Below the pieces are notes generated by a model. That model did no database searches. It was not told the origin of the DNA and saw only the letters and a list, made by a program, of their open reading frames with translations. From an uncultured Dehalococcoidales bacterium (GTDB lineage: Bacteria; Chloroflexota; Dehalococcoidia; Dehalococcoidales; E44-bin46): a DNA stretch of 64,000 nucleotides. Numbering within the stretch: position 1 is the stretch's first letter; each line of letters begins with the position of its first letter. Below, piece by piece: positions 9,682 to 24,931 of this stretch. Position numbers and translations under genes: made by a program. Where the stretch lies: positions 145,395 through 209,394 of the forward strand of contig CAZVIZ010000001.1 of NCBI GenBank assembly GCA_964627215.1. Direction: 5' to 3'.

Positions 9682-9963
9682 ATGGCACTGTATGTGATGC
9701 TTACTACCTTGACCGACGAGGGCAGGAAGACCATAACCGCCAAGCCCAAGAGAATCAAAGAGGTGAATGAGGAGGTGGAGGCCATGGGGGTCAAGATAAT
9801 CGCCCAGTATGCCCTGTTGGGCCCCTACGACTTCCTCAACATCCTGGAGGCACCGGACAACATCACCGTGTCCAAGCTGGCCATGGATCTGGGAGCCAGG
9901 GGCACCCTCCAGACGATGAGCATGCCCGCTATGCCATTGGACGAGTTCATCGATAAGCTTTAG
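9682..9963 (+). CDS. GYD domain protein
   Basis: MALYVMLTTLTDEGRKTI...GPYDFLNILEAPD matches the GYD family. ATG at 9682 with GGGGAGG upstream is preferred over the track GTG at 9664. Confidence 0.7.
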   Translation: MALYVMLTTLTDEGRKTITAKPKRIKEVNEEVEAMGVKIIAQYALLGPYDFLNILEAPDNITVSKLAMDLGARGTLQTMSMPAMPLDEFIDKL

Positions 9964-9971
9964 AAAATCGG

Positions 9972-10586
9972 GTGAGAATAAGAAATAGACTGGTATTGGC
10001 CACGGGCAACGAGGGTAAGGTGCGTGAATACCGCCGCCTGCTCGCTGGTATCCCCGTGGAGCTTCTAGCGCCGGCCGACGTGGGTGTGGATGTGGAGGTG
10101 GAGGAGGTGGGGGCTACCTTTGAGGAAAACGCTGCCCTTAAAGCCAAGGCCATAGCCTCGCTGAGTGGTATTATGAGCCTGGCCGATGACTCCGGGCTGG
10201 AGGTAGATGCGTTGGGTGGGGAGCCGGGTGTCAGGTCAGCGCGTTACGCTGGCGAGGGGGCTTCGGACGAGGATAGGGTGAGCTATCTGCTTAGCAAGAT
10301 GCGGGGGGTGCCCTGGGAGGAGCGCACGGCGCGGTTTTGCTGTGTTATCGCCGTAGCCTCCCCCGAGGGTGCGGTGGAGTTCTGCGAAGGGAAATGCGAG
10401 GGCATGATAGCGCTCCAGCCCAAAGGGGAGGGCGGCTTTGGCTACGACCCTGTGTTCTATGTCCCGGCTTTGGATAGGACTATGGCAGAGCTCTCTCAGG
10501 CCGAGAAGAACGCCATAAGCCACCGTGGCAGGGCGGCGGGTGGGGTGCCCCGTGTCCTGGAGAGGTTGGGCTATGACCGGCCTTAG
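9972..10586 (+). CDS. rdgB: dITP/XTP pyrophosphatase (RdgB/HAM1)
   Basis: LVLATGNEGKVREY...DDSGLEVDALGGEPGV...GFGYDPVF...SHRGRA. Confidence 0.9.
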   Translation: MRIRNRLVLATGNEGKVREYRRLLAGIPVELLAPADVGVDVEVEEVGATFEENAALKAKAIASLSGIMSLADDSGLEVDALGGEPGVRSARYAGEGASDEDRVSYLLSKMRGVPWEERTARFCCVIAVASPEGAVEFCEGKCEGMIALQPKGEGGFGYDPVFYVPALDRTMAELSQAEKNAISHRGRAAGGVPRVLERLGYDRP

Positions 10587-11559
10587 CGACTCCTTCCAGC
10601 GCCCCATCAACTACCTGCGCATATCGGTTACTGACCGCTGTAACCTGCGTTGTATCTATTGCATGCCTGACGGCGGCGTGCCGCAGGTCTCCCACGAGGA
10701 TATCCTCACCTATGAGGAGATAGCCGCCGTGGCCGAGGCCGCCAGCGAGGTTGGCATAGATAAAGTGCGGCTCACTGGCGGCGAGCCACTGGTCAGGCTA
10801 AACCTGAGCGCCCTGGTCAAGATGCTGGCTCGCATTAAGAGAATAGACGATATCTCCCTATCTACCAACGGCACCCTGCTCAAAAACTATGCTGGGGAGC
10901 TTAAGGCGGCGGGGCTTAAACGGGTTAATATAAGCCTGGATACCCTTAAGCCGGATAGGTTCCGTGCCATTACCCGCAGCGAGCACGAGTTGGGCGATGT
11001 CCTCGCCGGACTGGAGGCCGCTCATGCGGCAGGGCTTACGCCGGTGAAGATAAACGTGGTGGTTATCCGCGGCAAAAACGATGACGAGATAGCTGACTTT
11101 GCTCTAAAGACCATTCATGAGGGCTGGCACGTCCGCTTTATAGAGCTTATGCCTGTAAAGGGCTTGGGTTTGAGCGAGCTTGACTTCGTGCCTGTGGCGG
11201 AGATGAGGAAACGGCTTGAACCGCTGGGACCTCTTGAACCCTGCCTGCCCAGTGCGGGCAACGGCCCGGCTAAGTACCTCCGCTTCACTGGATCCGCCGG
11301 AAGTATAGGCTTCATCACGCCGGTCAGCGAGCACTTCTGCTTTAAATGCAACCGCTTGCGTTTAACCGCTGACGGTAGGCTGCGCCCCTGTCTGCTGGCC
11401 GACGATGAGGTTGACCTCAGGCGTCCATTGCGCCAGGGGGCATCGGCGGCGGAGATTAAGCAGCTTGTAGAGCAGGCGGCGGCGGCTAAGCCGCGACGGC
11501 ATGGTCTGGATAATGGCTGCATGCCCCAGGGCGGCCGTTTCTCTGAGACAGGAGGCTGA
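10573..11559 (+). CDS. moaA: GTP 3',8-cyclase (radical SAM, molybdopterin biosynthesis)
   Basis: INYLRISVTDRCNLRCIYCMP motif. The internal ATG at 10573 is preferred over the track start at 10525. Confidence 0.9.
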   Translation: MTGLSDSFQRPINYLRISVTDRCNLRCIYCMPDGGVPQVSHEDILTYEEIAAVAEAASEVGIDKVRLTGGEPLVRLNLSALVKMLARIKRIDDISLSTNGTLLKNYAGELKAAGLKRVNISLDTLKPDRFRAITRSEHELGDVLAGLEAAHAAGLTPVKINVVVIRGKNDDEIADFALKTIHEGWHVRFIELMPVKGLGLSELDFVPVAEMRKRLEPLGPLEPCLPSAGNGPAKYLRFTGSAGSIGFITPVSEHFCFKCNRLRLTADGRLRPCLLADDEVDLRRPLRQGASAAEIKQLVEQAAAAKPRRHGLDNGCMPQGGRFSETGG

Positions 11560-11562
11560 CCA

Positions 11563-12039
11563 ATGACTGAGATGACCCATATGGACGATTCCGGGCGGCC
11601 GCGTATGGTGGACATAAGCGGCAAGGCCGATACCAGCCGCCTGGCGGCGGCTGGGGGTAGGGTGGAGATGAAGCCCGAAACCCTCGAGATGATAAAGGGG
11701 GGTGGAACGGCCAAGGGGGACGTGCTGGTTGTGGCCAAGCTGGCCGGTATTATGGCGGCCAAACAAACGGCGCAGATGATACCGCTGTGTCATCCTATCC
11801 AGCTTGCCGAGGTGGATATAGACTTCGTCCTGCATGAAGAAGATAGCTCCGTGGAGATAACCGCCCGGGCAAAAGCAGTGGGCAAGACCGGCGTGGAGAT
11901 GGAGGCGATGGTCGCCGTGGCGGCGACGGCGCTGACTATCTATGATATGTGCAAGGCGGTGGACAGGGGCATCAGGGTTCAGGATATCCGCCTCAAGAGC
12001 AAGAGCGGCGGTAAGAGCGGCGATATAGTCCTTGAGTAA
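11563..12039 (+). CDS. moaC: cyclic pyranopterin monophosphate synthase
   Basis: 158 aa: MVDISGK...IPLCHPI...GVEMEAM...TIYDMCKA. Confidence 0.9.
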   Translation: MTEMTHMDDSGRPRMVDISGKADTSRLAAAGGRVEMKPETLEMIKGGGTAKGDVLVVAKLAGIMAAKQTAQMIPLCHPIQLAEVDIDFVLHEEDSSVEITARAKAVGKTGVEMEAMVAVAATALTIYDMCKAVDRGIRVQDIRLKSKSGGKSGDIVLE

Positions 12040-12104
12040 ACGGGGATATTGATATATAGTATGTCTATATATATCTGGGAATATACACTTTCTGGGGGTG
12101 TGTC

Positions 12105-13247
12105 ATGAAGCTTACTTGTCTTCAGGAGAACTTGAACCGCGGACTGGGCATAGTGGGGAGGGCGGTGGCCACCAGGGCCACGTTGCCTATAACCAGCAAT
12201 GTCCTTCTATCGGCGGAGGCGTCCCAGCTCAAGCTGGCGGCTACCAATCTGGAGATGGCAATAAGCTGTCGGGTAGGGGCCAAGGTGGAGAAAGAGGGTT
12301 CAATCACCGTACCTGCCCGGCTGCTCATAGAGTTCGTGAACTCCCTGCCCAACGATAAAGTGGATATCCAACTGCTTCCCCAGACCAAAACCCTGGAGCT
12401 TAAGTGCGCCCGCTTCGAGGCGCGTATAAGCGGGGTGGATGCCAAGGACTTTCCGCCTATACCGGAGGTGGCCCAGGGGGTTCCTACTAAGGCACAGGTA
12501 GATGCCCTTAGGCAGGGTATCAACCAGGTGGTCTTCGCCGCCGCTACCGAGGAGTCTCGCCCCGTACTTACCGGCGTGGACGCCGAGTTTGATGGCGAGA
12601 ATGTAACCATGGCCGCTGCCGATGGCTTCCGCCTGGCGGTGTATAAATTGCCCCTGGCCAAGAAGGTTACCCAGAAGACCCAGGTGATTATCCCATCTCG
12701 CACCCTCGCCGAGCTGGGGCGGCTGATCACCGACGAGGAGTCGGTGGATATTATGGTGGATCCCGATAAGAGCCAGATACTGTTCAGCCTTAAGGGCAAG
12801 GCGCAGAGCATAGCCCTGGTGTCGCAGCTGGTCCAGGGTAGCTTCCCCAACTATGGCCAGCTTATACCGCAGGATTGTAAGACTAAGGCAGTGGTGGACA
12901 CCACGTCCTTCTTAAGGGCGGCCAAGACTGCCTCTATCTTCGCCCGTGATGGCAGCGGCATCGTCCGCCTGGTAATGGCCCCCGGCGTTGAGATGACGCC
13001 TGGCAGAATGACCGTATCTGCCCGCTCCGAGGAGATAGGCGACGATGTGGGCGAGATAGACGCCGTGGTGGATGGCGAGGAGTCTAAGATAGCCTTTAAC
13101 GGCAAGTACCTGATAGATGTCTTGAACGTGCTCCGGGAGGAGCAGGTTTCACTGGAGACAACCAACCCCTCTAGCCCTGGTGTTATTCGCCCTGTGGGCA
13201 CGGACAACTACATCCATGTTGTAATGCCCATGTTCGTTCAGTGGTGA
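12105..13247 (+). CDS. dnaN: DNA polymerase III beta sliding clamp
   Basis: 380 aa: MKLTCLQENLNRGL...LPITSNVLL...MPMFVQW C-terminus. No dnaA is adjacent. Confidence 0.9.
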   Translation: MKLTCLQENLNRGLGIVGRAVATRATLPITSNVLLSAEASQLKLAATNLEMAISCRVGAKVEKEGSITVPARLLIEFVNSLPNDKVDIQLLPQTKTLELKCARFEARISGVDAKDFPPIPEVAQGVPTKAQVDALRQGINQVVFAAATEESRPVLTGVDAEFDGENVTMAAADGFRLAVYKLPLAKKVTQKTQVIIPSRTLAELGRLITDEESVDIMVDPDKSQILFSLKGKAQSIALVSQLVQGSFPNYGQLIPQDCKTKAVVDTTSFLRAAKTASIFARDGSGIVRLVMAPGVEMTPGRMTVSARSEEIGDDVGEIDAVVDGEESKIAFNGKYLIDVLNVLREEQVSLETTNPSSPGVIRPVGTDNYIHVVMPMFVQW

Positions 13248-13254
13248 GTAAGCT
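13224..13254 (+). repeat. direct repeat copy 1 (native dnaN 3' end plus stop), att-like
   Basis: ATGCCCATGTTCGTTCAGTGGTGAGTAAGCT recurs at 16951-16975 (24/25) and 17144-17169 (22/26). Confidence 0.8.
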
Positions 13255-13338
13255 CGACGAATCCCCTGATGATTCCGTGGACATAGATTCCAGCGGTATG
13301 ATGCTTGACTTTACAGGTATCTATCAAACGGGCACTAG

Positions 13339-14121
13339 TTAATCCGGAATTACTATTATCGGTTTCCCATTCGGTCCGATTACAGAATTTCCCTCTCCAT
13401 CTAAGACAGCCCGACCTAGTATCGGGGCTCCATCTTCATCTACAAGAGGATTGCCCGTTGGGTTCATCACAGGTTGTGGCTCGCCGAATTGTGTATCATC
13501 ACGGAATGTTTCCGATGGTGATAGCTCATCATCTTGCATCTCAGAGCGTGGTATTCCTCCTGGTGGAGTCGGATCCTGGGTTGGGTCATCTTGCCTATCA
13601 GGGCGAGGAGTATACGCGAATCTTTCATTGTCGGGTCCAGACGTGAATCCTGGACCGAGTTCAAGAAAATACGTCACGGGGGGGGATATCCATCCTTCGT
13701 CAGTATCAGTAAAATATATCGGCTCGCCTTCAGGATACTCACTATAATCGAGGACCGGTTCTCCCGTTTCATAAAAGAGTTGTCGACCCAGCACCGGGTA
13801 TCCATCTGCGGTTACAATAATATCACCATTGAAATCTCTAACATTCTGCACATCGCCTAATTCTTGACCCTCAGGGACTTCTATTTGCAAGAAAGAATCA
13901 CTATACTTATAATCATCATACTCATAACGATCATCATCTCCGCCATTACCGCCATCATCTCCGCCATGGTCACCATCTCCGCCATTACCGCCATCATCTC
14001 CGCCATGGTCACCACCTCCGCCATTACCGCCATCACCAGGAATATAGGCCAATGTTGGGGAAGACAAGGCTATAATAAAGATCAATGATAGTATTAGCGA
14101 AAAAGCTAATTTCATTTTCAT
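13339..14121 (-). CDS. secreted acidic Gly/Asp-repeat protein, function unknown
   Basis: 260 aa. It has an N-terminal signal peptide (MKMKLAFSLILSLIFIIALSSPTLA), then GDHGGDDGGNGGD repeats. The gene is AT-rich. Confidence 0.6.
   Translation of the reverse strand: MKMKLAFSLILSLIFIIALSSPTLAYIPGDGGNGGGGDHGGDDGGNGGDGDHGGDDGGNGGDDDRYEYDDYKYSDSFLQIEVPEGQELGDVQNVRDFNGDIIVTADGYPVLGRQLFYETGEPVLDYSEYPEGEPIYFTDTDEGWISPPVTYFLELGPGFTSGPDNERFAYTPRPDRQDDPTQDPTPPGGIPRSEMQDDELSPSETFRDDTQFGEPQPVMNPTGNPLVDEDGAPILGRAVLDGEGNSVIGPNGKPIIVIPD
13935..14037. repeat. 39-bp in-frame tandem repeat (2 full units plus a partial one)
   Basis: CATCTCCGCCATTACCGCCATCATCTCCGCCATGGTCAC occurs at 13935-13973 and identically at 13974-14012, with a partial variant to 14037. 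It encodes GDHGGDDGGNGGD on the minus strand. Confidence 0.9.
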
Positions 14122-14161
14122 AAGTATATTTTACCCCCTCTACAAAAGTAGACTCTAATGG

Positions 14162-14725
14162 CTATTTCTCCCCAAACCAACTAATGGTTTCCAGTTTATT
14201 AAGCAGATGTACCCCCACCTGCTCAAGTGCTTCCTTACGAGATTTACCGGCATCACTCCAACTCTCGTACTGGGACAGGGTCCAAATATTATCTTTCGGC
14301 AAAGAATCAACTAGTGTAGTGTAATCATAATGGGTCGTGTAATAGACATCGAAAGCTGCCTGAGAGTTTGTATCGTCAATGGCTGCAATGAGACTAACCA
14401 GTTGAGAATTAAACGCGGCTACGTCATCGAAATTATAAGCACCGGTTCCATAATAGTAATCGTACCAAAGTAAGTAAGCAGTAATCGCGGACAGTTCTTC
14501 ATTCAGTTTGGTAGAATTATTGAGCGAGTTCTCAAGTTCTCCATTGGTTTTGGTCAAATCCTCAACTCGGGTGTTGAGTTCTTCCAGTTGCTGTTGGGAA
14601 GAGGTTAATTCAGACGTTAATTGGTCGTGTTGCTCCTGAGGGATTCCGGATGAACAACCTGACAAAGCCAGCACCATAATCATTAATGGTAGATAGATTG
14701 CGAAGTACTTCATTTTTGTTGTCAC
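14162..14725 (-). CDS. lipoprotein with coiled-coil segment, function unknown
   Basis: 187 aa with lipobox LALSGC after a hydrophobic N-terminus, and a Q/E/L-rich heptad-like stretch. Confidence 0.6.
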   Translation of the reverse strand: MTTKMKYFAIYLPLMIMVLALSGCSSGIPQEQHDQLTSELTSSQQQLEELNTRVEDLTKTNGELENSLNNSTKLNEELSAITAYLLWYDYYYGTGAYNFDDVAAFNSQLVSLIAAIDDTNSQAAFDVYYTTHYDYTTLVDSLPKDNIWTLSQYESWSDAGKSRKEALEQVGVHLLNKLETISWFGEK

Positions 14726-14833
14726 GATAACATACTCCTATACCAGAGTATTCGCACTTTACTAAAAAAAAACGCCATTAGTCAAGAATTTAGTAACAGC
14801 TTGTATCATGCAGTGTGCAAAAAGTCCGAAATA

Positions 14834-14947
14834 TCACATTTTGACGGAGTGCTCCTCCAGGTAGGGCAGCATGACATTGCGGACGCCGGGGTCAATCGGG
14901 GTGGTAGCATTGTAGTCAAGGTATATCGGCTTCTCACTGGGTTTCAT
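14834..14947 (-). pseudogene. 5' stub of a cysteine desulfurase (NifS/IscS-like) gene
   Basis: Own translation: MKPSEKPIYLDYNATTPIDPGVRNVMLPYLEEHSVKM*. IYLDYNATTP...V...M.PYL is the conserved class V aminotransferase N-terminus. Only 37 codons remain, and the GC-rich patch ends where AT-rich DNA begins. Confidence 0.65.
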
Positions 14948-14963
14948 TGATGGTGCTATCTTA

Positions 14964-15683
14964 TCAGTGTTCCTCTACTTTCGATATGAACATGCCGTGC
15001 CATGTATGATACCAGACGTCTCCTGAGTAGCCATTTATGCTCAGCATGCCATAGTGCTCATCTTCAAGCTTGGCCATTATGGTATAGTAGCCGTAGTAGG
15101 CGACAATCTCGTCAGCCTCGGCGCCGGGGTATGCCACGTCCAGAAAGCCCTGAGCGAGTTCCAGGGCCCTTTCCGGGGTAACTGCCATCTGAGCCTGCTG
15201 AGAGCTGCCCATCATGCCGTACTTGCTGTTCCACATCATGCTCTGGGGCTCGACTTGGAGGCTGCCACTATATCTGTCGATGATGGTCTCAATGGCTCCT
15301 CTGGCGGTGCTCTTCTCAATTAGGGACACGTAGAAGTTGTGGGAGTACTCCTCGAACTCATCGATTCTAAGGTCCGGGTTGTTCAGGGATGCCAAATAGT
15401 CATTTGCTATATCCTTAGCATCGTCATGAGAGAGCGGGACGAGAGCTCCAGAGTAGTATCCCATCATACCCCTCATCCCAGGCATGCCACTCATCATTCC
15501 CGATCCCGTCATACTTGACCCCATCATACCGCCGGAGCCCATCATGCCACCTGGGCTCATCATCCCGCCACCCTGCTGTGGCTGCTGGTAAGACGGCGTT
15601 GCAGGCTGAGTGGTGACACAGGAAGTAAGCACTAGTGGGACTAGTATCACTAGTAGAATACCTAACGTGTATAACCTCCTCAT
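14964..15683 (-). CDS. Met/Gly-rich lipoprotein (possible soft-metal binding), function unknown
   Basis: 239 aa with lipobox LVLTSC, then GGGMMSPGGMMGSGGMMGSSMTGSGMMSGMPGMRGMMG, then a globular C-terminal domain. Confidence 0.6.
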   Translation of the reverse strand: MRRLYTLGILLVILVPLVLTSCVTTQPATPSYQQPQQGGGMMSPGGMMGSGGMMGSSMTGSGMMSGMPGMRGMMGYYSGALVPLSHDDAKDIANDYLASLNNPDLRIDEFEEYSHNFYVSLIEKSTARGAIETIIDRYSGSLQVEPQSMMWNSKYGMMGSSQQAQMAVTPERALELAQGFLDVAYPGAEADEIVAYYGYYTIMAKLEDEHYGMLSINGYSGDVWYHTWHGMFISKVEEH

Positions 15684-15719
15684 CCCTGACCTCCAACCAT
15701 GAGTTGTCTTTCACGAATA

Positions 15720-16058
15720 TTAAACCATGTCCTTCTTCTTCTCTTCGTACTCCTGCTTATCTATCTCACCTCGGGCATATCTCTTTTTGAGCATTTCCAG
15801 AGGCGAGTCTGCTTTTAAGGAGTGAGAACCCCTTGACTCACCTAAACCGTGGACCAGAGCCACTACAGCCCATATGATAAGCCCCCAGAAAACCGGCATT
15901 AGCCACATCCCCCCGAAGCCGCCCATCATCCAGGGCCCCGTCATTCCGTATCCGTAGCATGGCCAACCCGGAATTGCTCCAAAAACCAGGGGTAAGACAA
16001 CAATGATGACTACCGCTATGCTACCGACAATAATGGCAGTCTTAATATTTTTATTCAT
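15720..16058 (-). CDS. SHOCT-domain membrane protein
   Basis: 112 aa with two hydrophobic segments containing M/G/W-rich loops. The C-terminal LEMLKKRYARGEIDKQEYEEKKKDM matches the SHOCT motif. Confidence 0.7.
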   Translation of the reverse strand: MNKNIKTAIIVGSIAVVIIVVLPLVFGAIPGWPCYGYGMTGPWMMGGFGGMWLMPVFWGLIIWAVVALVHGLGESRGSHSLKADSPLEMLKKRYARGEIDKQEYEEKKKDMV

Positions 16059-16169
16059 TCTGTCCCCCGCTTATCTATAATGATAGTGGAAGCATCGTTC
16101 TGGGATTCCAAACTCTTCAGCTTATGCCTGTCCTTTGGCAAGTGATACTCACCTTAACCGGTAATCGTT

Positions 16170-16496
16170 TTAGCCGAAAGTCACCACCTTGTCCGACTCG
16201 TCAATCATCTCCACCAATTGCGACATGGTAGAGATGGGACATACCCCAGCCTCCTTGTTCCTGGATTTGAGACAGGTGCCGCAGGCCAAAAGCCTGCCTT
16301 CGTGATTCAGGAACTGTGTTAGACCCTCAGCAACATTGAACTTCTTGTCCTTGACGTTCTCTATCTCCACACCGCTCCCCAAGAGAAACACGCTGGTTTC
16401 ATGACCATCAGCCAGAGCTTTGTTGCCCAAGCGCAGTGCATTCCAGGCGGTCTCAGGGTCGTTGCTGTTTAAGATGATGCCAAGCTTCATTACCAT
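16170..16496 (-). CDS. DsrE/DsrF-like sulfur-relay family protein
   Basis: 108 aa: MKLGIILNSNDPETAWNALRLGN...LLACGTCLK, matching the DsrE-like fold pattern. Confidence 0.55.
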   Translation of the reverse strand: MVMKLGIILNSNDPETAWNALRLGNKALADGHETSVFLLGSGVEIENVKDKKFNVAEGLTQFLNHEGRLLACGTCLKSRNKEAGVCPISTMSQLVEMIDESDKVVTFG

Positions 16497-16511
16497 ACCT
16501 CCTGACTAGTT

Positions 16512-16832
16512 TCATTTATCCCGAATAAGGGCTGCATCCTGTCTGATTTGCTCGAACAGTATTTCCCGCAATAAATCAAAGGCCTCAAGGAGGCGAGGAT
16601 TGGCTACTCGATAATAGACCACATTTCCCTCCTTCCTTGAGACGAGGATGCGGCGCTCCCTCATCATGGCCAGGTGCTGGGATAAATTGGCCACGGCCAG
16701 CCCCAGCCTCTGGGACAGATCGGTTACACTCATCTCTTCATCGCGGAGAATGTTAATGAGCTGCAGTCGTTTAGGGTGAGAGAACACCTTACACATCTCG
16801 GCGTGGTAGGAATAGATCTGGTCTTCTTCCAC
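16512..16832 (-). CDS. ArsR/SmtB family transcriptional regulator
   Basis: 106 aa: FSHPKRLQLINILRDEEMSVTDLSQRLGLAVANLSQHLAMMRERRILVSRKEGNVVYYRV (winged HTH). GTG start lies 7 nt after AGGAGG. Confidence 0.85.
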   Translation of the reverse strand: MEEDQIYSYHAEMCKVFSHPKRLQLINILRDEEMSVTDLSQRLGLAVANLSQHLAMMRERRILVSRKEGNVVYYRVANPRLLEAFDLLREILFEQIRQDAALIRDK

Positions 16833-16861
16833 TTATACCTCCTGTATGCGTAAATAAATAC

Positions 16862-16877
16862 TTTAGAAACTTCTAAA
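16862..16877. promoter_or_regulatory. candidate ArsR operator palindrome TTTAGAA-AC-TTCTAAA
   Basis: Perfect 7-2-7 inverted repeat 30-45 bp upstream of the arsR-like start. It sits just downstream of a minus-strand TATAAT. Confidence 0.45.
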
Positions 16878-16950
16878 ATACTATATAATTATAATAGCTG
16901 ACACCTTTTTCCATGTCAACCCCCGTGGTCGGATATTTTGGGGGTACATA

Positions 16951-16975
16951 ATGTTCGTCCAGTGGTGAGTAAGCT
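16951..16975 (+). repeat. direct repeat copy 2 of the dnaN 3' end
   Basis: ATGTTCGTCCAGTGGTGAGTAAGCT matches dnaN 13230-13254 at 24/25 positions. The single difference is a synonymous third-codon position. Confidence 0.8.
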
Positions 16976-17143
16976 TTAGCGAGCTCGCCGATGCCTCCGT
17001 TTGAGCGGTCTCCAGCGGAATTGCACCCTGGGACCGATTTTCTCTGGCGTGGCTTTCCCTCGCTTGTGCCTTCGGCCGAATTCCGATATAATAGCTTGTG
17101 TGTCCGGTGGTCGGGTTGTACTTACCCGTTTGAATTAACAAAC

Positions 17144-17169
17144 ATGCCTATGTTTGTCCACTGGTGAGT
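17144..17169 (+). repeat. direct repeat copy 3 of the dnaN 3' end (more diverged)
   Basis: ATGCCTATGTTTGTCCACTGGTGAGT matches 13224-13249 at 22/26 positions and reads MPMFVHW*. All four differences fall on third codon positions. Confidence 0.7.
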
Positions 17170-17852
17170 TGTTTTAAGGGTATCGGTTAAGGCGGGCTGG
17201 TGGAGGCGGGGATCTGATGTGGGTGGCCAGGGAAGGGGCGCATAGGATAATCAAGCCCCATCAGGCTGAGCTTCTGTCTGACGACGTGAAAAAAACCTGC
17301 GTGAGATTGTGGAAACTGCCAGGAAAGAGCTTGTATGAGCTTTGATAGGGCCGATGTTTGGGGAACCTGGTGTCGGCGGCATTCAAGAGTTACTGTGAGT
17401 TGAAGGAAATTCAGCTGATTGTGAGCATAATAGGGTCATCGTGTATGTCAGGGTGATATCCGGCCAGTTGGATAGAATCTTGGTCATGGATGGTGGCCGT
17501 AGTGCATTTGATATAGCGGGACAGATTCTCACCAGCGAGATTCAAGACATGGTGCGCATTAACCACGTGGTCTGGGTGCGGACCAGCGATTCGTTGGAAT
17601 CTGTCATGAACCTTGAGAGCGAGGTATGCATCGGCGCGCAGGACGAATCCCCGGCATCTACAAGGGATACCCTTATACATGTAACAGACTTGATAGAGGA
17701 GTTTGACCTGGAGTATAGGAGGTTGAAGGCGGGGTGGGGGATTATGAAAGTGCGGATTTAGTGGCGTTGCAAGATGTGCCGGGATTATAACTTGGATATC
17801 AATTGTCTCCGGCGTGGCCTGCCAATTTGTAGCCTAAGATTGTGGCCGACTC

Positions 17853-17893
17853 CATGCCCTGATGTAAGTGTAAGCGGATTACATCAGGGCATG
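17853..17893. other. perfect 15-bp inverted repeat (hairpin) downstream of ureD
   Basis: CATGCCCTGATGTAA-11 nt-TTACATCAGGGCATG. There is no clear U-tract on either strand. Confidence 0.3.
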
Positions 17894-17969
17894 ATTTAAC
17901 AAACAAGTCAGGATATATCTCCCGCCGCATTTTGGGTGTCAGGAAACCGGGCGAAGTGAAGGGTTACCC

Positions 17970-18881
17970 TTATCTCATGCCTGCCGGAGTTGCGCCGGTT
18001 TGGATAGGTTTTGCTGGCTTGCCAGCAATTGCCGGTCGCGTTACCTCCCACGCACCATAGATTGCTTCATTGATCTGCCAAGTCTCTTGACTTAAAATAC
18101 GTACAACCACCATATTACCTAAGCGGCTTACCCCTATCTCCACACCATCAACAGCTGCGCACTTATCATGTACTGAATCCTCAATTCCCCCCGGCAGATC
18201 GGGAGCATAAGCGAAGACCGTGCCCATATAGTAGGCTCCATTCCAGAGCTGTTTTAGCGCATCTACGTGCCTGCGTTCCTTTGCAACAAGGCGGTCGATG
18301 GCGAACCTTCTGTTATCAATGCTAACCTCGAACGACGATTCCATACTGTCGAACTGGAAGATTTCACCATCTCCATGGTAGATCCGGCCTGCTGTCATCA
18401 GGTCTGTGGCGAAGAGCCTTGAGGATTGATCTATGAAGATCTGAGTGTTCCGTTGGATACGACTCTGACCATAGGGGATAGCCAGACCAGAATGATACTC
18501 GAATAAGGCTCGCGCACCCACGGTCACATTAACAATCTCGCGTGAGGTTTCCCCCCCCAGGCAACCATAGAACTTACTGGCTGATTGAGCGGCTACCAGC
18601 ATCCTGGTATCGGGTTCAAGAACGGCAGTGAATTCAGTGACATCACCTTCCACGAAACCGCCGCTGGTGGTAATCAGGGGGAAAAACGGCTCATCGTCGT
18701 GATCTTGATAATGGTATCCCTGCCACTGATACGGGACACGCCGACTACGAGACTCAATCTCTGTGCGTCCATTTTGCAACCGCGCGTGTATGTTCAGTAA
18801 ACCGTGTTTACCAATATCCCAATCCTCTTTTGGCAAAACGGGTTCGGCCATAATCAACTCCTCAATCGCCTTAGGGTTCAA
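17970..18881 (-). CDS. ureD: urease accessory protein UreD
   Basis: 303 aa at the last position of the urease cluster, overlapping ureG. Length and position fit UreD/UreH. Confidence 0.7.
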
Positions 18882-19482
18882 TTAAAAGCACTTCGCGTTT
18901 GATCCAGCTAATCACTTGGTCAAGTCCTTCGCCGGTCTTCATATTAGTGAAGATAAATGGCTTATCGCCCCTCATATTCTTGGCGTCTCGTTCCATCAGA
19001 GAGAGATCAGCTCCCACATACTGCGCTAGGTCCCTCTTGTTAATGACTAGGAGAGGGGATTTAGTAATGCCAGGGCCGCCTTTCCTGGGGACGTCATCGC
19101 CTCCTGCTACGTCTAGAACATAGATGTGGCTATCCACAAGCTCTGGGCTATAAGTCGCTGCCAGGTTATCGCCCCCACTCTCAACGAATACTATATCAAC
19201 ATCGGGATGTTGGGCAATCATTTCCTCCACCGCATGAAGATTCATAGACACGTCTTCACGGATTGCGGTGTGAGGGCAACCCCCGGTCTCAACTCCACTA
19301 ACGCGGTCGGCAGGCAGCACACCACTTCTTACAACAGCCTGAGCGTCTTCTTTGGTATAAATATCATTGGTGATAGCTGCCACTGAATAAGTTTTCCCCA
19401 TCTCGCGAGCAAGTTGCAAGAGGAGAGCAGTCTTACCCGAGCCTACGGGTCCTGCAATTCCAAGTCTGACTGGTTTACGCAT
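18871..19482 (-). CDS. ureG: urease accessory GTPase UreG
   Basis: [16 protein letters not shown]...[13 protein letters not shown]...ESGGDNL. Confidence 0.95.
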
Positions 19483-19518
19483 TTTTCCTACTCCTTCCAG
19501 GGTTAATAGTAAATATTC

Positions 19519-20247
19519 TCAAGACATACAGAGGCGAGAATACATACGCTCGTGGTGCATAGCCGCAATATCAAGCATCGCTGCGGTAGATCCAAACTCT
19601 TCAGGCTTGAGTGACCGAGCGATTTCCACTGCTTGGGTCAACAGGGGCCAGGAATTGGTAATGATACGCTGTGCTTCTATTTGACCCAGCGGAATCAGAC
19701 GGGCAGCAACCCCTATTAGATTACCGAGAGTAGCCTGAAGGGAAACTAATACTATTTCCGCTTCTGTGATGCCCGCAGCAGCTCCGGCAACTCCGGAAGC
19801 TACGGCCTGATGACCTTCACATTTGCCTTCCTTCACTGCTTTAGCGTAAGGCTCCAACATTCCACCATGATGAAATACCTTCATCACAGTGGTAAGGAAA
19901 GCATGCCCCATCTTATATGAGGATTCCCGAATCTCCCGTGGGAGCTTTAAAGCTCCCACAAGATTGTCAAGCTCAACGATTTGCTCGAGGTCTCCTGCTA
20001 AAGCTGCACGGTGTGCTGTTGCCACCGCTGCCCCGTCCAGCGGAGCTACTCCATAGAGCAACCAGTTAGAGCATAGTTCCTCTAAGCCCTTCGCATCGGA
20101 GATCTCTCCCCTGTCTATTAGTGTTTCGAATCCATATGAGTGATTGAAAGCACCAGTGGGAAACGCTGAGTTGGCAATTTGAAGTAAATAAAGCAGCCCT
20201 TCCTGCCCTTTTTCAACAGGCATGTGACCTCCTATCCATGCAGACAT
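19519..20247 (-). CDS. ureF: urease accessory protein UreF
   Basis: 242 aa: LLQIANSAFPTGAFNHSYGFE, the typical UreF motif. Confidence 0.85.
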   Translation of the reverse strand: MSAWIGGHMPVEKGQEGLLYLLQIANSAFPTGAFNHSYGFETLIDRGEISDAKGLEELCSNWLLYGVAPLDGAAVATAHRAALAGDLEQIVELDNLVGALKLPREIRESSYKMGHAFLTTVMKVFHHGGMLEPYAKAVKEGKCEGHQAVASGVAGAAAGITEAEIVLVSLQATLGNLIGVAARLIPLGQIEAQRIITNSWPLLTQAVEIARSLKPEEFGSTAAMLDIAAMHHERMYSRLCMS

Positions 20248-20711
20248 TAATCGTGATGATGATGGTGGGCGCCATAACGTTTGCCCGTAAAGGGCGTCAC
20301 ACGTTGGACATAAGGAACTTTGAGCCGGTCCAACACGCCTGCAACCCCTGAATCAGCTGGGGTGAGTAACGAATCGTGGTTGAAACGTACAGGGCTGTGC
20401 AAGTTTCCCAGCAGATAGCCGGTCACCCCCCACTCAAGCGCATCTCTTGGACTAACCACAAAGAGATCCTCTGGTGCAGCGGCGATAACGATGGCGATCT
20501 CCCCATCCACTGCTATCACGTCTCCGTCCATGAGTTCAATGCCTCGTGGAATAGAGAGCCGCATATTGCGCCCGCCTTCGGTTTGTCTGACCATGTGGGG
20601 GCTCGACCGCTCCTCTGCGGTTAGCAGGAGGCGGTCGAACCCCTTCACGTTCTCTTTAAAGTCGTCAGCTTTTCCTAGGACCTCTACAACCACACCCTCT
20701 TCACCAATCAT
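20247..20711 (-). CDS. ureE: urease accessory metallochaperone UreE
   Basis: 154 aa with His-rich tail GAHHHHHD, positioned between ureC and ureF. Confidence 0.8.
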   Translation of the reverse strand: MIGEEGVVVEVLGKADDFKENVKGFDRLLLTAEERSSPHMVRQTEGGRNMRLSIPRGIELMDGDVIAVDGEIAIVIAAAPEDLFVVSPRDALEWGVTGYLLGNLHSPVRFNHDSLLTPADSGVAGVLDRLKVPYVQRVTPFTGKRYGAHHHHHD

Positions 20712-20741
20712 ATCCGACTTCCTTTTTATCTAGGCGTCTTC

Positions 20742-22451
20742 TTAACGGAAGAAATAAAGCTGAGACATAGGCAGCGACTTAGCTGGCTTTACCGTTGCTC
20801 GTTCCCCGTCCACATAAACGCTGTATGACTCTGGGTCGATTTCGATTTCGCCCATCCAGTCATTATACAGCATATCACGTTTGGACAGTGTTCGCACATC
20901 GTGGACCGGCATCAGGGTCTGATGGGACCCAAGCCTGTCGGCCAAGCCGTCATCAATGGCTGCCTGAGGCACGAAGGAATAGCTTAACTGTGACGGATTG
21001 CTACCAAAGGCTGCGTACTGTGGGCGAATCTTGGTCGGCTGGGTGGTCATTAGGGAACCATTGGGTTCTCCCATATCGGCCCTGGAAATGTACCCGCCCT
21101 TTAATATGTGCTGTGGCTTCACGAAGATCATGTCAGGCCGCCAGACAACGAGGTCGGCGAGCTTTCCTGGTTCTATGGAGCCAATATACTGGGAGACACC
21201 AGTGGCGATACAAGGGTTGATGGTAACCTTGGACAAGTATCGCTTGATGCGGAAGTTGTCGTTATTAGGGCTGTCTTCAGGAAGCTTGCCATAACGCACC
21301 TTGTTGACAGCAGCAAGCTGGAAACTCTTCAGCGCGCTCTCACCGGCACGCCCCATGCCCTGGTTGTCCGCCGTCATCATGCTGATAGCACCGATGTCGT
21401 GCAAAACATCCTCAGCCCTCATAGTTTCCGCACGTGCTCGCCCATGGGCGAATGCTATATCTGTCGGCACATCTACGTTGAGATTGTGGCACGTAATCAG
21501 CATGCCGAGAGACTCATCCCAGGTATTGATACAGAACGGATTAGCACAACTGGTCGAGCTGGTCAATAAGTTGGGCTCACCGCAGCACTTCAGGAGGTCT
21601 GGAGCATGTCCCCCTCCGGTACCTTCAACATGATACATATGCATCACTCGTCCGTTGATGGTTTCAAGCGTGCGTTCCATGTATCCGGCTTCATTAAGGG
21701 TGTCAGTGTGCAGCATTATTGGTATATCGTACTCGTCGCCAATCTGCAGACAGACATCGGTTACTGCGTGGGTTGCGCCCCAATCCTCATGAATCTTAAA
21801 GCCCGTTGCACCATTCAGAACCTGTTCTCTTAGTACACCTTTGCTTATGGCATTGCCCTTGCCCCAGTTAGCGAAGTTGACAGGGAAATCGGCCATAGCC
21901 TGCAGCATCATGCGCAAGTTGTTTTGGCCTGGGCACTCAATACCAACGGTGTGAGGGCCCGTGCCGCCGCCGAATAGACTGGTAAAACCAGCGTTCAAGA
22001 ATTCGTATACTGTCTGGACGGAATCGAAGTGGACATGGGCGTCCACTAGTCCTGGAGTGACGATCTTGCCTTCGACTGACAGGATATCAGTGTTGGCTGA
22101 AACAACCAGCCCTGGGGTGATATCCATGGTGTCTGGATTGCCTGCTTTGCCCACGCCAACGAACTTGCCATCCCGAATGCCTATATCGCCTTTAACTATG
22201 CCCTGGACTGGGTCCATGATGACGGCATTGGTTATTACGAAGTCAAGAGCGCCATCGTTATATGACCATTTGCCCGAATGGCCCGCGCCATCACGGATGG
22301 TCTTGCCGGGGCCGAACACCATCTCGTCACCATAAGTACCATAATCGTGTTCAATCTCGGCAACTAGGCCTGTGTCCGCCAAGTGAATGCGATCACCCTT
22401 CGTCGGCCCATACTGTATCGCATAATCAGAACGCGGAATCTTTACGCTCAT
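20742..22451 (-). CDS. ureC: urease alpha subunit
   Basis: 569 aa: VDAHVHF...MLHTDTLNE...HVEGTGGGHAPD...MGRAGE active-site motifs. Confidence 0.95.
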   Translation of the reverse strand: MSVKIPRSDYAIQYGPTKGDRIHLADTGLVAEIEHDYGTYGDEMVFGPGKTIRDGAGHSGKWSYNDGALDFVITNAVIMDPVQGIVKGDIGIRDGKFVGVGKAGNPDTMDITPGLVVSANTDILSVEGKIVTPGLVDAHVHFDSVQTVYEFLNAGFTSLFGGGTGPHTVGIECPGQNNLRMMLQAMADFPVNFANWGKGNAISKGVLREQVLNGATGFKIHEDWGATHAVTDVCLQIGDEYDIPIMLHTDTLNEAGYMERTLETINGRVMHMYHVEGTGGGHAPDLLKCCGEPNLLTSSTSCANPFCINTWDESLGMLITCHNLNVDVPTDIAFAHGRARAETMRAEDVLHDIGAISMMTADNQGMGRAGESALKSFQLAAVNKVRYGKLPEDSPNNDNFRIKRYLSKVTINPCIATGVSQYIGSIEPGKLADLVVWRPDMIFVKPQHILKGGYISRADMGEPNGSLMTTQPTKIRPQYAAFGSNPSQLSYSFVPQAAIDDGLADRLGSHQTLMPVHDVRTLSKRDMLYNDWMGEIEIDPESYSVYVDGERATVKPAKSLPMSQLYFFR

Positions 22452-22501
22452 ATTTGTGCCTCTCTTTCATACTTTAAAAGTTGAAATACCTTCCGGTATA
22501 G

Positions 22502-23005
22502 TTACTTTTTCTTAGCCTTATACTTCTCGTCTGCTCGAGTTACTACCGGGTATCTATCTCCCTCAAAGCAGAAACCGTCGGCACGTAGCCTGCTCATGGT
22601 TTGTTTCTTGATCTCCGGCAACCTTACAGAGCCGTTGGTCATGTTGTTTAGGCCATATATTGCCTGGTGCCCTAGGAAGGTTGTAAGACGGATTTTCTGG
22701 CTTTGTCCGGGCTCAAAACGCACAGAGGTCCCTGCTGGTATGTCGAGACGCAATCCGAAAGCAGCCTCACGATCAAAAGCCATAGCTCTATTGCACTCTG
22801 CAAAATGGAAATGCGCTCCAACCTGGACAGCGCGGTCACCTGTGTTGACCACCGTTAGTTCCGTAGTTGGTCTACCGACGTTAATTTCAATATCGCCTTC
22901 AGCGAAGTCGATATGTCCGCACTTGCTTGGCTCACCAACATCAAATGATTCCTTTGGAATCACAGACTTAGGTAGAGGCGGCCTTTCCCAAAATTTCTCA
23001 GACAT
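22502..23005 (-). CDS. ureB: urease beta subunit (with N- and C-terminal extensions)
   Basis: The core INVGRPTTELTVVNTGDRAVQVGAHFHFAECNRAMAFDR matches UreB. At 167 aa it is longer than the usual ~100-130 aa. Confidence 0.85.
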   Translation of the reverse strand: MSEKFWERPPLPKSVIPKESFDVGEPSKCGHIDFAEGDIEINVGRPTTELTVVNTGDRAVQVGAHFHFAECNRAMAFDREAAFGLRLDIPAGTSVRFEPGQSQKIRLTTFLGHQAIYGLNNMTNGSVRLPEIKKQTMSRLRADGFCFEGDRYPVVTRADEKYKAKKK

Positions 23006-23030
23006 AGCTATCCTCCTTTCGTAATATCTA

Positions 23031-23339
23031 CTATCGTATCGGGTTATATATGGTAACTAACTTCGAGCCTTCGGGGAACTTTACATCGATTTGTAGGATT
23101 TTCATCATCTCCGGCACCGGCTCCATAACGTGATCCTTTGTTAGGATCTTTCCCCCGTATTCCACAAGGTCAACGAGCATCGGAATACTGTTGTCGCGGG
23201 CGCGCTCAAGGACTTCATCACAAATCAGGGCCATGGCTTCGGGGTAGTTCAACTTAACCCCACGCTCAAGCCGCCGCCGAGCCATCTCAGCCGCCGCCCA
23301 AACTTGTATGCGCTCCTCTTCATGGATTGTTAAATGCAT
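23031..23339 (-). CDS. ureA: urease gamma subunit
   Basis: MHLTIHEEERIQVWAAAEMARRRLERGVKLNYPEA. ATG at 23339 is preferred over the track TTG at 23345. Confidence 0.9.
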   Translation of the reverse strand: MHLTIHEEERIQVWAAAEMARRRLERGVKLNYPEAMALICDEVLERARDNSIPMLVDLVEYGGKILTKDHVMEPVPEMMKILQIDVKFPEGSKLVTIYNPIR

Positions 23340-23438
23340 CCCCAACCCCCTTTCTCTTTCTATTAAGAATAAAATCTCTCAACTTCTTTATTGCGCCTAC
23401 CTTCACATAACCCCCCTCCCTTTCTATTGATTATCACT

Positions 23439-23456
23439 GCGCAATATCATTTGCGC
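23439..23456. promoter_or_regulatory. palindrome GCGCAA-N6-TTGCGC upstream of ureA (operator candidate)
   Basis: Perfect 6-6-6 inverted repeat about 100 bp upstream of the ureA start, in the SBP1-ureA spacer. Confidence 0.3.
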
Positions 23457-23500
23457 TTCAAGTAGCTCACAGGGTTTATCCTATTAGTGCCTACTTATGG

Positions 23501-24931
23501 CTACTCTAGCCAAGGAGGCAATACAAACTCCGTTCCTACCTCTTCAATATATTGATGTCGGGGTTGATACCCGTAGTGTTCTAACATATATTCTTCTGTG
23601 GGGTAGTCATATAAGAAGAGTACTATATCCTGCGGGCCGTCTGATGTGACCTGTATCTGGCTGAAGGTCATTGAGGACCCGTAATCTGGTCCCTCCGGAC
23701 GGTTTTCCTTGTCCCACTCCGGCATACCCTCTCTCCACATTGTACGGTCAGTACCGCTCAGCGGCGATATGTTAGTCCCGCTCGGGCCATAAGTCATGCC
23801 TTTCATGTGAGTGTCCATGATGTGATCAATAATTCCGCGATAATCCTTCACATCACCGACAGCTTCAACAGCTTCCGCCCAGAACATAACCTGATCATAG
23901 TTTGAATAAGCCATGCAGAAGCCAGGCCCCTCGCCAAATCTGGCCGTATATCTTTCCCTGTAATCGTACGCCTTGTCGGTTGGATACGGCCCTATGGTGG
24001 TTTGCCAAAGCAAGCCCACAGCTTGTTCCCCCAGCATTTTCCGCAATTCAGGTGTAGTCGGAGCATACTGGATAACAATCAGCGAATCGGTCGGGTCTTC
24101 AAGGAATTGCCTTACGAAAGCGGCTGATTCGGGAACAAACGCGGTGTTGAAAAAGATGAACCCTGGGTTTGCCTCCCTGATCTTGGCTAGCTGTATCCCA
24201 AATTCCGGAACACCACTGCCGACGTCCATGCTCCTGAATGGGTGAACTTCATCTATCACTAATTCCCACTCGGGGTCCGCTTCTATCAAATCTCTTAGAA
24301 CGCCCGAAATCTCCAAGTTGTAGGTTACCTGTGCCGTTAAGATTGCTGCCGTTTTGCTTGGATAATCATATTCCTCCGCAATCTTCTCAGTCATAATCTC
24401 ATAAACATTTGGGCCATACATTACTGCGGTGTCGTCCAGCTGCAATATGTTCCAGTACTTATCTGGGTTCGACGCCCACATTTCAGCAAACAGTTCTGTA
24501 GTACCCACATGAAGATAGGGAATGCCGCCGGTCTCCTCCGCGGCGAAAATATCCATGAAGGCGGGATCGAAGCCATAACCCGGGAAGAAGGCATCTACCT
24601 CCTTTTGTAGCAGGTAGTCACGAGCCGCGATCTGGTCCTGCGCCCCCCAGTTCACCACATCACGGATAAAGATTTCTACGCGTCTCCCCAGTAACCCACC
24701 CCTAGCGTTTATCTCTTCAACCGCCATGGTCATTCCGCGTTCCATCTCTATCGCATCAGGCCCTGGCACCCCGCTGAGAGGCAAGGGCGCGCCTATTCTT
24801 ATCGGTTCTATCTCCTCTGGTGTTGGAGTTGGGGCAGCACAGCCATTTAGCAATGGCACACTTGTTAGCAGTACCGCTGCTAAGCTTATACCGACAATCG
24901 CTTTAAACTTTAACAATTTAGATTTACCCAT
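23501..24931 (-). CDS. ABC transporter substrate-binding lipoprotein, Liv/Urt (HAAT) type, paralog 1
   Basis: Lipobox LLNGC. It is very similar to the 28515-29993 product (shared blocks such as DPAFMDIFAAEETGGIPYLH and ELFAEMWASNPDKYWNILQ). The internal ATG at 24931 avoids overlap with the ATPase gene. Confidence 0.75.
   Translation of the reverse strand: MGKSKLLKFKAIVGISLAAVLLTSVPLLNGCAAPTPTPEEIEPIRIGAPLPLSGVPGPDAIEMERGMTMAVEEINARGGLLGRRVEIFIRDVVNWGAQDQIAARDYLLQKEVDAFFPGYGFDPAFMDIFAAEETGGIPYLHVGTTELFAEMWASNPDKYWNILQLDDTAVMYGPNVYEIMTEKIAEEYDYPSKTAAILTAQVTYNLEISGVLRDLIEADPEWELVIDEVHPFRSMDVGSGVPEFGIQLAKIREANPGFIFFNTAFVPESAAFVRQFLEDPTDSLIVIQYAPTTPELRKMLGEQAVGLLWQTTIGPYPTDKAYDYRERYTARFGEGPGFCMAYSNYDQVMFWAEAVEAVGDVKDYRGIIDHIMDTHMKGMTYGPSGTNISPLSGTDRTMWREGMPEWDKENRPEGPDYGSSMTFSQIQVTSDGPQDIVLFLYDYPTEEYMLEHYGYQPRHQYIEEVGTEFVLPPWLE

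Follow-up and report, generated by a model that had tools for sequence, protein, structure and literature searches.

Probable attachment-site scars of serine-recombinase elements at the 3' end of dnaN in an uncultured Dehalococcoidales bacterium

Why should the last codons of the sliding-clamp gene dnaN be found three times, always in the same orientation, along one stretch of DNA? The question is raised by 64,000 nucleotides (nt) from an uncultured Dehalococcoidales bacterium (GenBank assembly GCA_964627215.1, contig CAZVIZ010000001.1, positions 145,395 to 209,394), called here the window, in which an earlier note, made from the letters alone, had taken the repeats for scars of tyrosine-recombinase elements that use dnaN as their insertion site. 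Here, we propose instead that the copies are the attL site, an internal junction and the attR site of a tandem array, built by elements that encode a large serine recombinase (LSR) and integrate in the last ~20 bp of dnaN, a reading to which we give a probability of roughly 0.88. The window would then probably hold the decayed remains of at least two, and likely three or four, insertions behind dnaN.

Copies of the dnaN end and recombinase stubs in the window

A 20-mer search of the window with up to three mismatches returned exactly three sites, all on the plus strand, against 0.00 expected from 100 shuffles, which bears out the count given in the earlier note (coordinates of all features are collected in Table 1). 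The product of dnaN itself matches all three clamp domains in Pfam (DNA_pol3_beta, DNA_pol3_beta_2 and DNA_pol3_beta_3). Neither a weight matrix built from relatives nor relaxed regular expressions revealed another clear copy in the 64 kb, no tRNA or transfer-messenger RNA (tmRNA) gene was found in the window, and no Rfam family matched across 12-19 kb at E values up to 0.1. An exact-protein look-up of the window DnaN retrieved one short contig from run SRR8146443 (L081), which carries the identical protein in the same arrangement and terminates inside the open reading frame (ORF) at 13339-14121.

The three copies are built differently around their shared core. In copy 1 the left arm is the B arm of dnaN and the right arm is an element-derived P' arm: past the stop codon, GTAAGCTCGACGAATCC.. 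is the antisense of a recombinase-gene 3' end and not chromosomal flank. The crossover dinucleotide of this copy is predicted to be the CC at 13227-13228. Copy 2 has no ATGCCC part owing to a 3-nt deletion (between ..TACATA and ATGTTC..), with which the CC centre has gone; on its left lies a decayed P arm of a first element (A), on its right the P' arm of a second (B). Copies 1 and 2 agree in the 7 nt that follow the stop codon, because both run on into recombinase 3' ends. Copy 3 differs from the dnaN end at four positions, all of them third codon positions as the earlier note had observed, and the change of CAG to CAC swaps Gln for His. It also has a left arm that is absent from native dnaN, ACAAACAT-GCCT-ATGTTTGT, an inverted repeat with its halves at 17138-17145 and 17150-17157 and with a crossover CC predicted at 17147-17148. 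A position weight matrix scored copy 3 (37.6) above the native dnaN end (28.8), and its left arm is nearly identical to the left arm in another genome (L012). Further right, 17701-17715 is probably a fourth copy, held with lower confidence than the other three and recognisable only as the continuation of an alignment, under softer scoring, of the neighbouring recombinase stub (stub D, below) with the attL and recombinase end of a relative, L002.

That no integrase survives, as the earlier note had stated, is right for intact genes, of which we recognise none in the window, and wrong for their remains: 3' stubs of what appear to be three LSR genes adjoin copies 1, 2 and the degenerate copy 4 on the right. 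Of the gene behind copy 1 (stub A) only 55 nt past the dnaN stop survive, the remainder being deleted. Its minus-strand translation, IIPLESMSTESSGDSSSLLTTERTWA, matches the C-terminus of the L002 recombinase (65% over 26 aa, E 1e-4, tblastn) and has 19 of 26 residues in common with the P0001/L082 recombinase; at the DNA level the sequence right of copy 1 matches the L082 recombinase 3' end at 88% over 92 nt (E 1e-28, blastn). Stub B reads KATPEKIG / AIPLETAQTEASASS / LLTTGRT across three frames, and the 103 nt at 16951-17053 match the same L082 3' end at 74% over 104 nt (E 3e-11, blastn). For stub D the local alignment scores were 36 (L082) and 28 (L002), where 3000 random 400-nt windows reached at most 26; blastn gave 77% over 39 nt (E 0.014) and tblastn 10 of 13 residues. 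A blastn search of the window flanks against relatives at E 0.01 returned nothing, and the flank homology emerged only via translation and the closer L082 sequence. We also considered a stub directly right of copy 3, where the likeness to the [IV]PLE[LF] motif known from short-tailed LSRs is limited to 'PIPLKQ'; this was too weak to claim.

The site in relatives and in free elements

Is the region behind dnaN an insertion site in other genomes as well? A scan with the DnaN protein, one genome per species, yielded 80 loci of 67-80% identity (given L numbers here), nearly all labelled as metagenome-assembled genomes of Dehalococcoidales, Dehalococcoidia or Chloroflexota, with one binned as Calditrichales; 69 of them extend 500 nt or more past dnaN and were taken as informative. 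Extra same-strand copies of the dnaN end, one or two in number, lie 0.1-9.7 kb downstream in 21 of these 69 species genomes, near-full-length LSR genes occur in 7 and LSR fragments in 7, and 29 of the 69 have extra copies and/or an LSR gene. These counts uphold the view that the repeats are attachment (att) scars and that dnaN is the insertion site. Fragments of the recombinase gene were seen in L005, L011, L012, L020 and L067, and in the window. The DNA between the copies differs in every genome, and an all-versus-all blastp of the island ORFs found no protein common to two genomes. The ten largest cargo ORFs of the relatives include a MalT/LuxR regulator, surface proteins, SMC-like and SIR2-like proteins, a NYN protein and a CetZ tubulin; by Pfam, no recombinase is among these ten.

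Other genomes have an empty site with a single copy of the dnaN end (L001, L004, L009, L013, L015-17, L045 and others). In the nearest relative, L001 (80% DnaN identity), synteny passes from the counterpart of window positions 6179-13253 directly to that of 42119 onward: dnaN is followed by 27 nt and then by a homologue of 42044-42802, which leaves ~28.8 kb extra in the window. The earlier note had looked to the sequence right of 17169 or to the gene at 30817 as the original neighbour of dnaN, and neither takes that place in L001. In L045 and L011 a homologue of 39030-39719 comes after dnaN or after the genome's own island, and for 13.25-39 kb of the window no homologue adjoins dnaN in any relative examined.

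Two further observations concern the region around dnaN in this sample. Nine of the 80 contigs end less than 400 nt past the dnaN stop (L003, L007, L014, L021, L022, L032, L043, L052 and L070), which suggests that metagenome assemblies break at a strain-variable site after dnaN. L023 has an att-like copy at ~3273 on the minus strand, 4 kb upstream of dnaN and inverted with respect to it, whose left arm (TCAGACATCCCGATGTTTGTGAGGTGGTAAGTAGG) is of the element type; this may reflect an inversion between sites.

The gene consistently joined to the site is an LSR. In L002 a 528-aa ORF on the strand opposite dnaN terminates inside dnaN, and its last codons (..LLTTGQTWA-stop) are the antisense of ..ATGCCCATGTTTGTCCAGTGG... 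Homologues of 50-53% identity stand directly against dnaN in L031, L036, L040 and L078, further LSR genes against dnaN are cut by contig ends (L029, L048 and L068), and in L018 the LSR is 2.5 kb away. Where the gene is intact it is convergent with dnaN and overlaps its last ~26 nt. The recombinases of L002, L031, L036, L040, L078, L088 and L177 all match PF00239, PF07508 and PF13408 (Resolvase, Recombinase and Zn_ribbon_recom), and the nearest solved structures in a PDB search are the SPbeta YokA, TP901-1 and A118 integrases. Database relatives of the L002 LSR number at least 1745, none of them specifically named, and the best 120 are unnamed or called 'recombinase family protein' and come from Chloroflexota. 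Among homologues on long contigs, three of four overlap a DNA_pol3_beta gene and the fourth (P0001/L082) abuts a dnaN 3' fragment.

We also approached the site from the recombinase, with 80 metagenome loci chosen by LSR homology, 66 of which include the LSR 3' end and are informative. Of these, 44 abut dnaN, 14 carry the core attached to non-dnaN sequence, 2 end at the core and 6 have neither core nor dnaN. The LSR clade is thus specifically linked to the dnaN end, because 44 loci abut dnaN and 16 more carry the core. In L132, L141, L145, L164, L169 and L172 the sequence left of the core (e.g. tttcacgtccatgtgttcatcccc) is not dnaN yet resembles the B arm aactacatccacgtcgtcatgccc; two readings are considered for it, decayed fragments of dnaN or a P arm of another type.

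Several loci hold a whole element, with dnaN, the LSR gene, cargo and then a P arm with the dnaN end (L078, L082, L084, L085 and L086; in L082 dnaN is present as a fragment only). One complete example is L078, where dnaN and the LSR are followed by a weak Rep_trans-like gene and, 5.1 kb downstream, by the P arm and dnaN end. L084 has a longer array, with dnaN and three further copies within 11 kb, and in L085 the second copy has the same post-stop sequence as the first, i.e. a second recombinase end; the cargo of these two loci includes NERD and OLD-like (AAA_15/TOPRIM) proteins. In L082 (11440-11750) and L083 the LSR gene abuts a ~150-nt dnaN 3' fragment beside an aldehyde:ferredoxin oxidoreductase gene and not a whole dnaN, a site that could stem from rearrangement or be a secondary one. 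The 8-kb L082 element encodes a Prim-Pol/D5 primase, a DUF3800 protein and an LSR 79% identical to that of L002, and is bounded by a second copy.

The extra copies in relatives have a common left arm that native dnaN does not have (..ACA[AG]ACAT[CG]-CC-N-ATGTTYGT..), and they form imperfect inverted repeats centred on the CC of the Pro codon. The proximal symmetry amounts to 6.5 of 12 positions in extra copies against 3.5 of 12 at native ends, and the CC centre is present in 25 of 31 extra copies and in 80 of 80 native ends. Within 38 extra-copy matches from relatives, which allow up to two mismatches and a few of which are probably due to chance, 64 of 83 differences fall on third codon positions and 22 copies read MFVQW. 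The third-position pattern that the earlier note had seen in the window is thus general.

Free forms were found as well. L088 is a 25-kb phage contig from IMG/VR without dnaN, on which a CI-like repressor, a 180-aa ORF, the LSR, the site and tail genes (tape measure and major tail) follow each other; such an order of int, attP and late genes is that of a temperate phage in the unintegrated state. Its attP, cttagcgtcatagtgcagacatg-CC-gATGTTTGTTCAATGGggctaag, is symmetric at 18 of 25 positions (null 6.2 +/- 2.2; 1 in 20,000). L177, one of the 14 metagenome loci whose core is not joined to dnaN, is a 7,697-bp contig with an exact terminal overlap of 123 bp, which closes into a circle of 7,574 bp, and a contig from another sample (L176) is 100% identical to it where they overlap and spans the circle junction. 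This circle encodes an LSR, a Mrr-type nuclease and a weak Rep_trans match, resembles DnaN only in the last seven residues and has an attP, cccatacgtacgcatgaaatggcagacatg-CC-cATGTTTGTTCAATGGtgagtagc, symmetric at 14 of 25 positions. A generic attP/attR pattern had no match in IMG/VR, and the phage attP was reached via the recombinase protein. Empty attB, attP, attL and attR have all been observed, although not as the matched set of a single element, and L088 and L177 are not the element of the window.

The recombinase frame crosses the att site in L088 (3739-5253), in L177 (2620-4248) and in the L040 and L078 ORFs. The free-form recombinases run past the '..TWA-stop' end that many integrated copies have, by 18 codons in L088 and by 30 in L177, and where the dnaN Val codon is GTA the recombinase meets no stop and its ORF continues antisense into dnaN.

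Proposed integration scheme, competing explanations and cargo

How would an element come to carry the end of its host's clamp gene? We propose that the free element is a temperate tailed phage or a small plasmid-like circle with an attP, an imperfect inverted repeat of ~50 bp whose right half copies the last dnaN codons (..CC N ATG TTY GTN CAR TGG stop) and whose left half is the mirror image (..ACARACAT S). The LSR gene adjoins this attP and reads into it, with last codons (..LTTGQTWA) that are antisense of the DnaN C-terminus. The recombinase would pair attP with the dnaN end and exchange strands at the central dinucleotide, most likely the CC of the Pro codon. Such pairing and strand exchange is the standard scheme of serine integrases, which cut both strands in concert with a 2-nt stagger, exchange them by rotation of subunits and take their direction from a recombination directionality factor. 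After integration the element would provide the last six and a third codons of dnaN, a new synonymous end (attL), while the original end would be displaced to the far side of the element, behind its left arm (attR). The copies would therefore differ mostly at third positions because the element supplies the last dnaN codons. Each later arrival would enter at the dnaN end then in use and shift the older elements farther from it, giving a tandem array in which, in the window, dnaN is followed by attL with stub A, 3.5 kb of cargo, copy 2 with stub B, copy 3, ~0.5 kb, copy 4 with stub D and a block of urease and urea-transport genes. We favour CC as the crossover point, as no other candidate agrees with both of two facts: it is the symmetry centre, and attR departs from dnaN just to its left (ATC/ATG) and not to its right. 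That the site was used repeatedly and that its elements are now fossils, as the earlier note had suggested, agrees with our analysis: all recombinase genes are reduced to stubs and copy 2 has no CC, and the array in the window is therefore taken as fixed.

The att site would thus appear to be coded on both strands, with the DnaN C-terminus PMFVQW-stop on one and the recombinase tail ..TTGQTWA on the other. In the E. coli clamp the C-terminal residues form part of the pocket that binds partners and the polymerase. An element that truncated these residues would probably be lethal, because the clamp C-terminus is part of that pocket. If the scheme is true, the element owns the last residues of its host's sliding clamp, and with them part of the polymerase-binding pocket. 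In the integrated form the recombinase either takes its stop from dnaN or reads through into antisense dnaN, and a terminus that depends on the state of the element was raised as an open question for dsiB (McMurdie et al. 2011, PMC3146451). We consider it unlikely that a C-terminus varying between free and integrated forms serves as a built-in switch which biases integration over excision without a separate directionality factor.

The repeats could have arisen in other ways, the least improbable of which, though still with very little in its favour as a whole, is an integron-like or Xer-like array of integrase-less cassettes with a palindromic site, inserted behind dnaN by a recombinase encoded elsewhere. 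Indeed, most intervals between copies in relatives hold diverse cargo and no recombinase, and the extra copies are palindromic. We briefly favoured such a model for lack of a common island integrase and dropped it once the LSR was found overlapping dnaN on the other strand. No integron integrase (intI) or Xer-type gene lies next to the window dnaN, the free forms encode their own LSR, and the site does not have the R''-L''/L'-R' layout of attC, as read against the textbook attC rather than in a formal test. Furthermore, the stubs occupy the position of the intact LSR, and the integrase-less intervals are therefore better read as decayed or cis-mobilisable elements.

The attribution made in the earlier note, to integrative elements with a tyrosine recombinase, whose usual targets are tRNA or tmRNA genes, is a shade less probable and is replaced here by the LSR. 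Duplication of a target's 3' end is typical of such elements, and the L002 island holds a 229-aa Phage_integrase-domain protein (5792-6481, minus strand) 1.8 kb from the site, in an island whose att-adjacent integrase is the serine recombinase. This ORF occurs in the L002 island only and is not adjacent to the site, however, and no Phage_integrase gene lies next to dnaN in the window. In every intact case it is a serine recombinase that overlaps the site, L088 and L177 carry an LSR next to attP with no tyrosine recombinase among their scanned ORFs, and all three stubs in the window read as serine-recombinase 3' ends.

We give hardly any credit to a local segmental duplication or gene conversion of the dnaN 3' end, through homologous recombination or slippage, with unrelated DNA inserted later. 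The agreement of copies 1 and 2 at 24 of 25 nt plus the 7 nt after the stop would fit such an event, but the post-stop nucleotides continue into two different recombinase stubs, the element-type left arm of copy 3 is also found in other species, and the same pattern with different cargo occurs in 21 species.

A conserved regulatory or structural repeat (a terminator, small RNA or protein-binding site) or a dispersed motif unrelated to mobile DNA can be practically dismissed, since insertion-free relatives, which by the earlier note should then keep every copy, have the native copy only, the 64 kb hold no further copy, Rfam gives no match in 12-19 kb, and the promoter-like sequence upstream of many extra copies at first sight (e.g. 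TATAGT ~25 nt upstream), a conserved ~45 nt that we had read as a promoter, is the distal left arm of attP, mirrored on the right arm in L088 and L177.

Several points weigh against the array of LSR elements that we prefer. The window has no intact recombinase and the catalytic domain is missing, such that activity is not demonstrable there, and its copies were assigned by homology of short stubs (26 aa, 104 nt and ~90 nt). In copy 2 the CC centre is missing and the left arm is poor, and copy 4 is not significant by itself. The crossover was placed from symmetry and from the departure of attR, not from the matched attB, attP, attL and attR of one element. At the right end, the oldest element is undefined, with no att-like sequence or repeat at the 30.7-kb edge. 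The closest relative has just 80% DnaN identity; no conspecific strain with an empty site turned up, the exact DnaN look-up gave only the arrangement of the window, and an exact metagenome search for the right flank of copy 3 had 0 matches.

The base composition of the window changes right at the dnaN stop, in line with the proposed insertions: GC content is 0.55-0.61 before it and 0.43-0.53 after it, up to a recovery at around 30.8-31.5 kb; the DNA at 31-42 kb (pstSCAB-phoU and Fe-S proteins) is again core-like, and upstream of dnaN the window has moaA and moaC. The cargo of element A (GC 0.43-0.53 versus 0.55-0.61 upstream of dnaN) gave no defence-system match except generic winged-helix hits, and none of it has a homologue adjoining dnaN in any relative. 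Within its minus-strand ORF at 13339-14121, positions 13914-14035 consist of alternating 21-nt and 18-nt repeat units with a 39-nt super-period, and the unassigned cargo protein accordingly has a repeat rich in Gly, Asp and Asn. Right of the array, the low-GC block (GC 0.45-0.53) has the urease genes at 17970-23345, and its transporter and binding-protein genes reach 29993; it does not adjoin dnaN in any relative and may be the cargo of the oldest element. In a ~0.8-kb non-coding stretch at its right edge, a 98-bp unit with two TGTCAACC motifs is present as a tandem pair of 99% identity (30495-30690), and a diverged third partial unit comes after the pair. A candidate fifth scar at the 30.7-kb edge was rejected, as the resemblance of TTTGTCAATGG..GTGGTAAGT scored no better than random windows.

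Table 1. Features of dnaN and the probable array behind it (positions in the window)
Feature	Position	Strand	Remarks
dnaN, beta sliding clamp (380 aa), insertion target	12105-13247	+	intact frame; terminus ..HVVMPMFVQW-stop
Copy 1, attL-type	13224-13254	+	ATGCCCATGTTCGTTCAGTGGTGAGTAAGCT; true end of dnaN plus 7 nt after the stop
Stub A, LSR gene 3' end (last ~26 codons)	13248-13302	-	tblastn match 13225-13302, including the dnaN overlap
Element A cargo, six ORFs	13339-16832	-	three ORFs without significant Pfam match; SHOCT-domain, DsrE-like, ArsR-type regulator
Copy 2, junction of elements A and B	16951-16975	+	24/25 match; reads MFVQW-stop
Stub B, second LSR gene 3' end	16976-17053	-	two frameshifts
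Copy 3, attR-type	17138-17169 with left arm; dnaN-end match 17144-17169	+	22/26 match; reads MPMFVHW-stop
Copy 4 (probable), heavily decayed	17701-17715	+	GTTTGACCTGGAGTA; ~9/15 to the core by eye, not computed; indels nearby
Stub D, third LSR gene 3' part	about 17743-17834	-	..ATPETIDIQVIIP..; ~600 nt right of copy 3
Low-GC block right of the array	17835-30800		urease ureDGFE-CBA, urea/branched-chain-type ABC transporter, two binding proteins (Pfam)

Relation to known systems

Elements of this kind are known, and what is added here is one more target and one more family, without a new mechanism. As a target of such elements dnaN is apparently undescribed: a search of full-text literature, which mostly does not extend to subscription papers, gave no description of integration at the dnaN end. 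With 29 of 69 species genomes affected, the region after dnaN is a frequent integration hotspot in an uncultured and environmentally important order, and knowing it is useful for binning, for the discovery of accessory genes and for recognising phages of Dehalococcoidia. The accessory genes at the site are metal- or sulfur-related, and perhaps include the urease cluster, in the window; elsewhere they encode nucleases and SIR2-like, OLD-like and Mrr proteins. The site also offers many natural serine integrases with examples of attP and of empty attB, although not from one matched element, and these could be mined as tools for genome engineering.

Large serine integrases are well known from temperate phages, among them Bxb1 (which targets groEL1), A118 (comK), SPbeta (SprA/YokA), phiC31 and TP901-1. 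The LSRs at dnaN share their domain architecture, an attP next to the integrase gene (here in L088), an imperfect inverted-repeat att site around a central dinucleotide and a target inside a host ORF. However, those phages generally disrupt or alter their target, whereas the dnaN elements restore the DnaN C-terminus. The identity of 20-25 bp between the P' and B' arms exceeds what a serine integrase needs and looks like a consequence of preserving dnaN.

SCCmec integrates at the 3' end of orfX/rlmH in staphylococci and requires two recombinases, CcrA and CcrB. Like the dnaN elements, it enters the 3' end of a conserved housekeeping ORF by serine recombinase and leaves that ORF functional, is flanked by direct repeats, and occurs in tandem or composite arrays and as integrase-less remnants; host phylum, target and cargo differ. 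SCCmec was also discussed in connection with Dehalococcoides islands (PMC3146451).

In pneumococci, a prophage lies between dnaN and ychF and, like the dnaN elements, immediately downstream of dnaN; it excises as a circle (PMC6375853). Its 14-bp attB, CCCTTTTTGTGTTA, is in the ychF promoter region and thus outside the coding end of dnaN, and a duplication of dnaN codons was not reported (PMC6375853).

The closest likeness is to the ssrA islands of Dehalococcoides mccartyi with their serine recombinase DsiB (McMurdie et al. 2011, PMC3146451), where it lies in architecture, judged from the published description. The ssrA islands carry a six-gene integration module of DsiB, the small serine recombinase DsiA, RecF-like, ParB and Mom proteins and a tRNA-like gene (PMC3146451). 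Near the LSR in L002, L078, L082, L084-L086, L088 and L177 we found no second Resolvase-domain gene, ParBc or Mom in the subset of ORFs scanned with Pfam, and the dnaN elements carry Prim-Pol/D5, Rep_trans-like or phage modules, unlike the ssrA islands. In both systems, Dehalococcoidia carry tandem islands downstream of an essential gene present in one copy, and direct repeats of the 3' end of that gene (20 bp in the ssrA islands, PMC3146451) mark the island boundaries, with conserved element-derived bases just upstream of each repeat. Both have a serine recombinase of ~500-540 aa, encoded on the reverse strand next to attL, whose 3' end overlaps the target and whose stop codon depends on the integration state, and in both some islands have no integrase and are read as fixed or cis-mobilisable. 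The mechanism of the ssrA islands in organohalide-respiring Dehalococcoides thus has a counterpart at a second essential gene. The target of the dnaN elements differs, being a protein-coding gene and not a tmRNA, and the element must rebuild a reading frame; because of this coding target, one strand of the dnaN repeat is under codon-level constraint and the opposite strand is bound by the tail of the recombinase.

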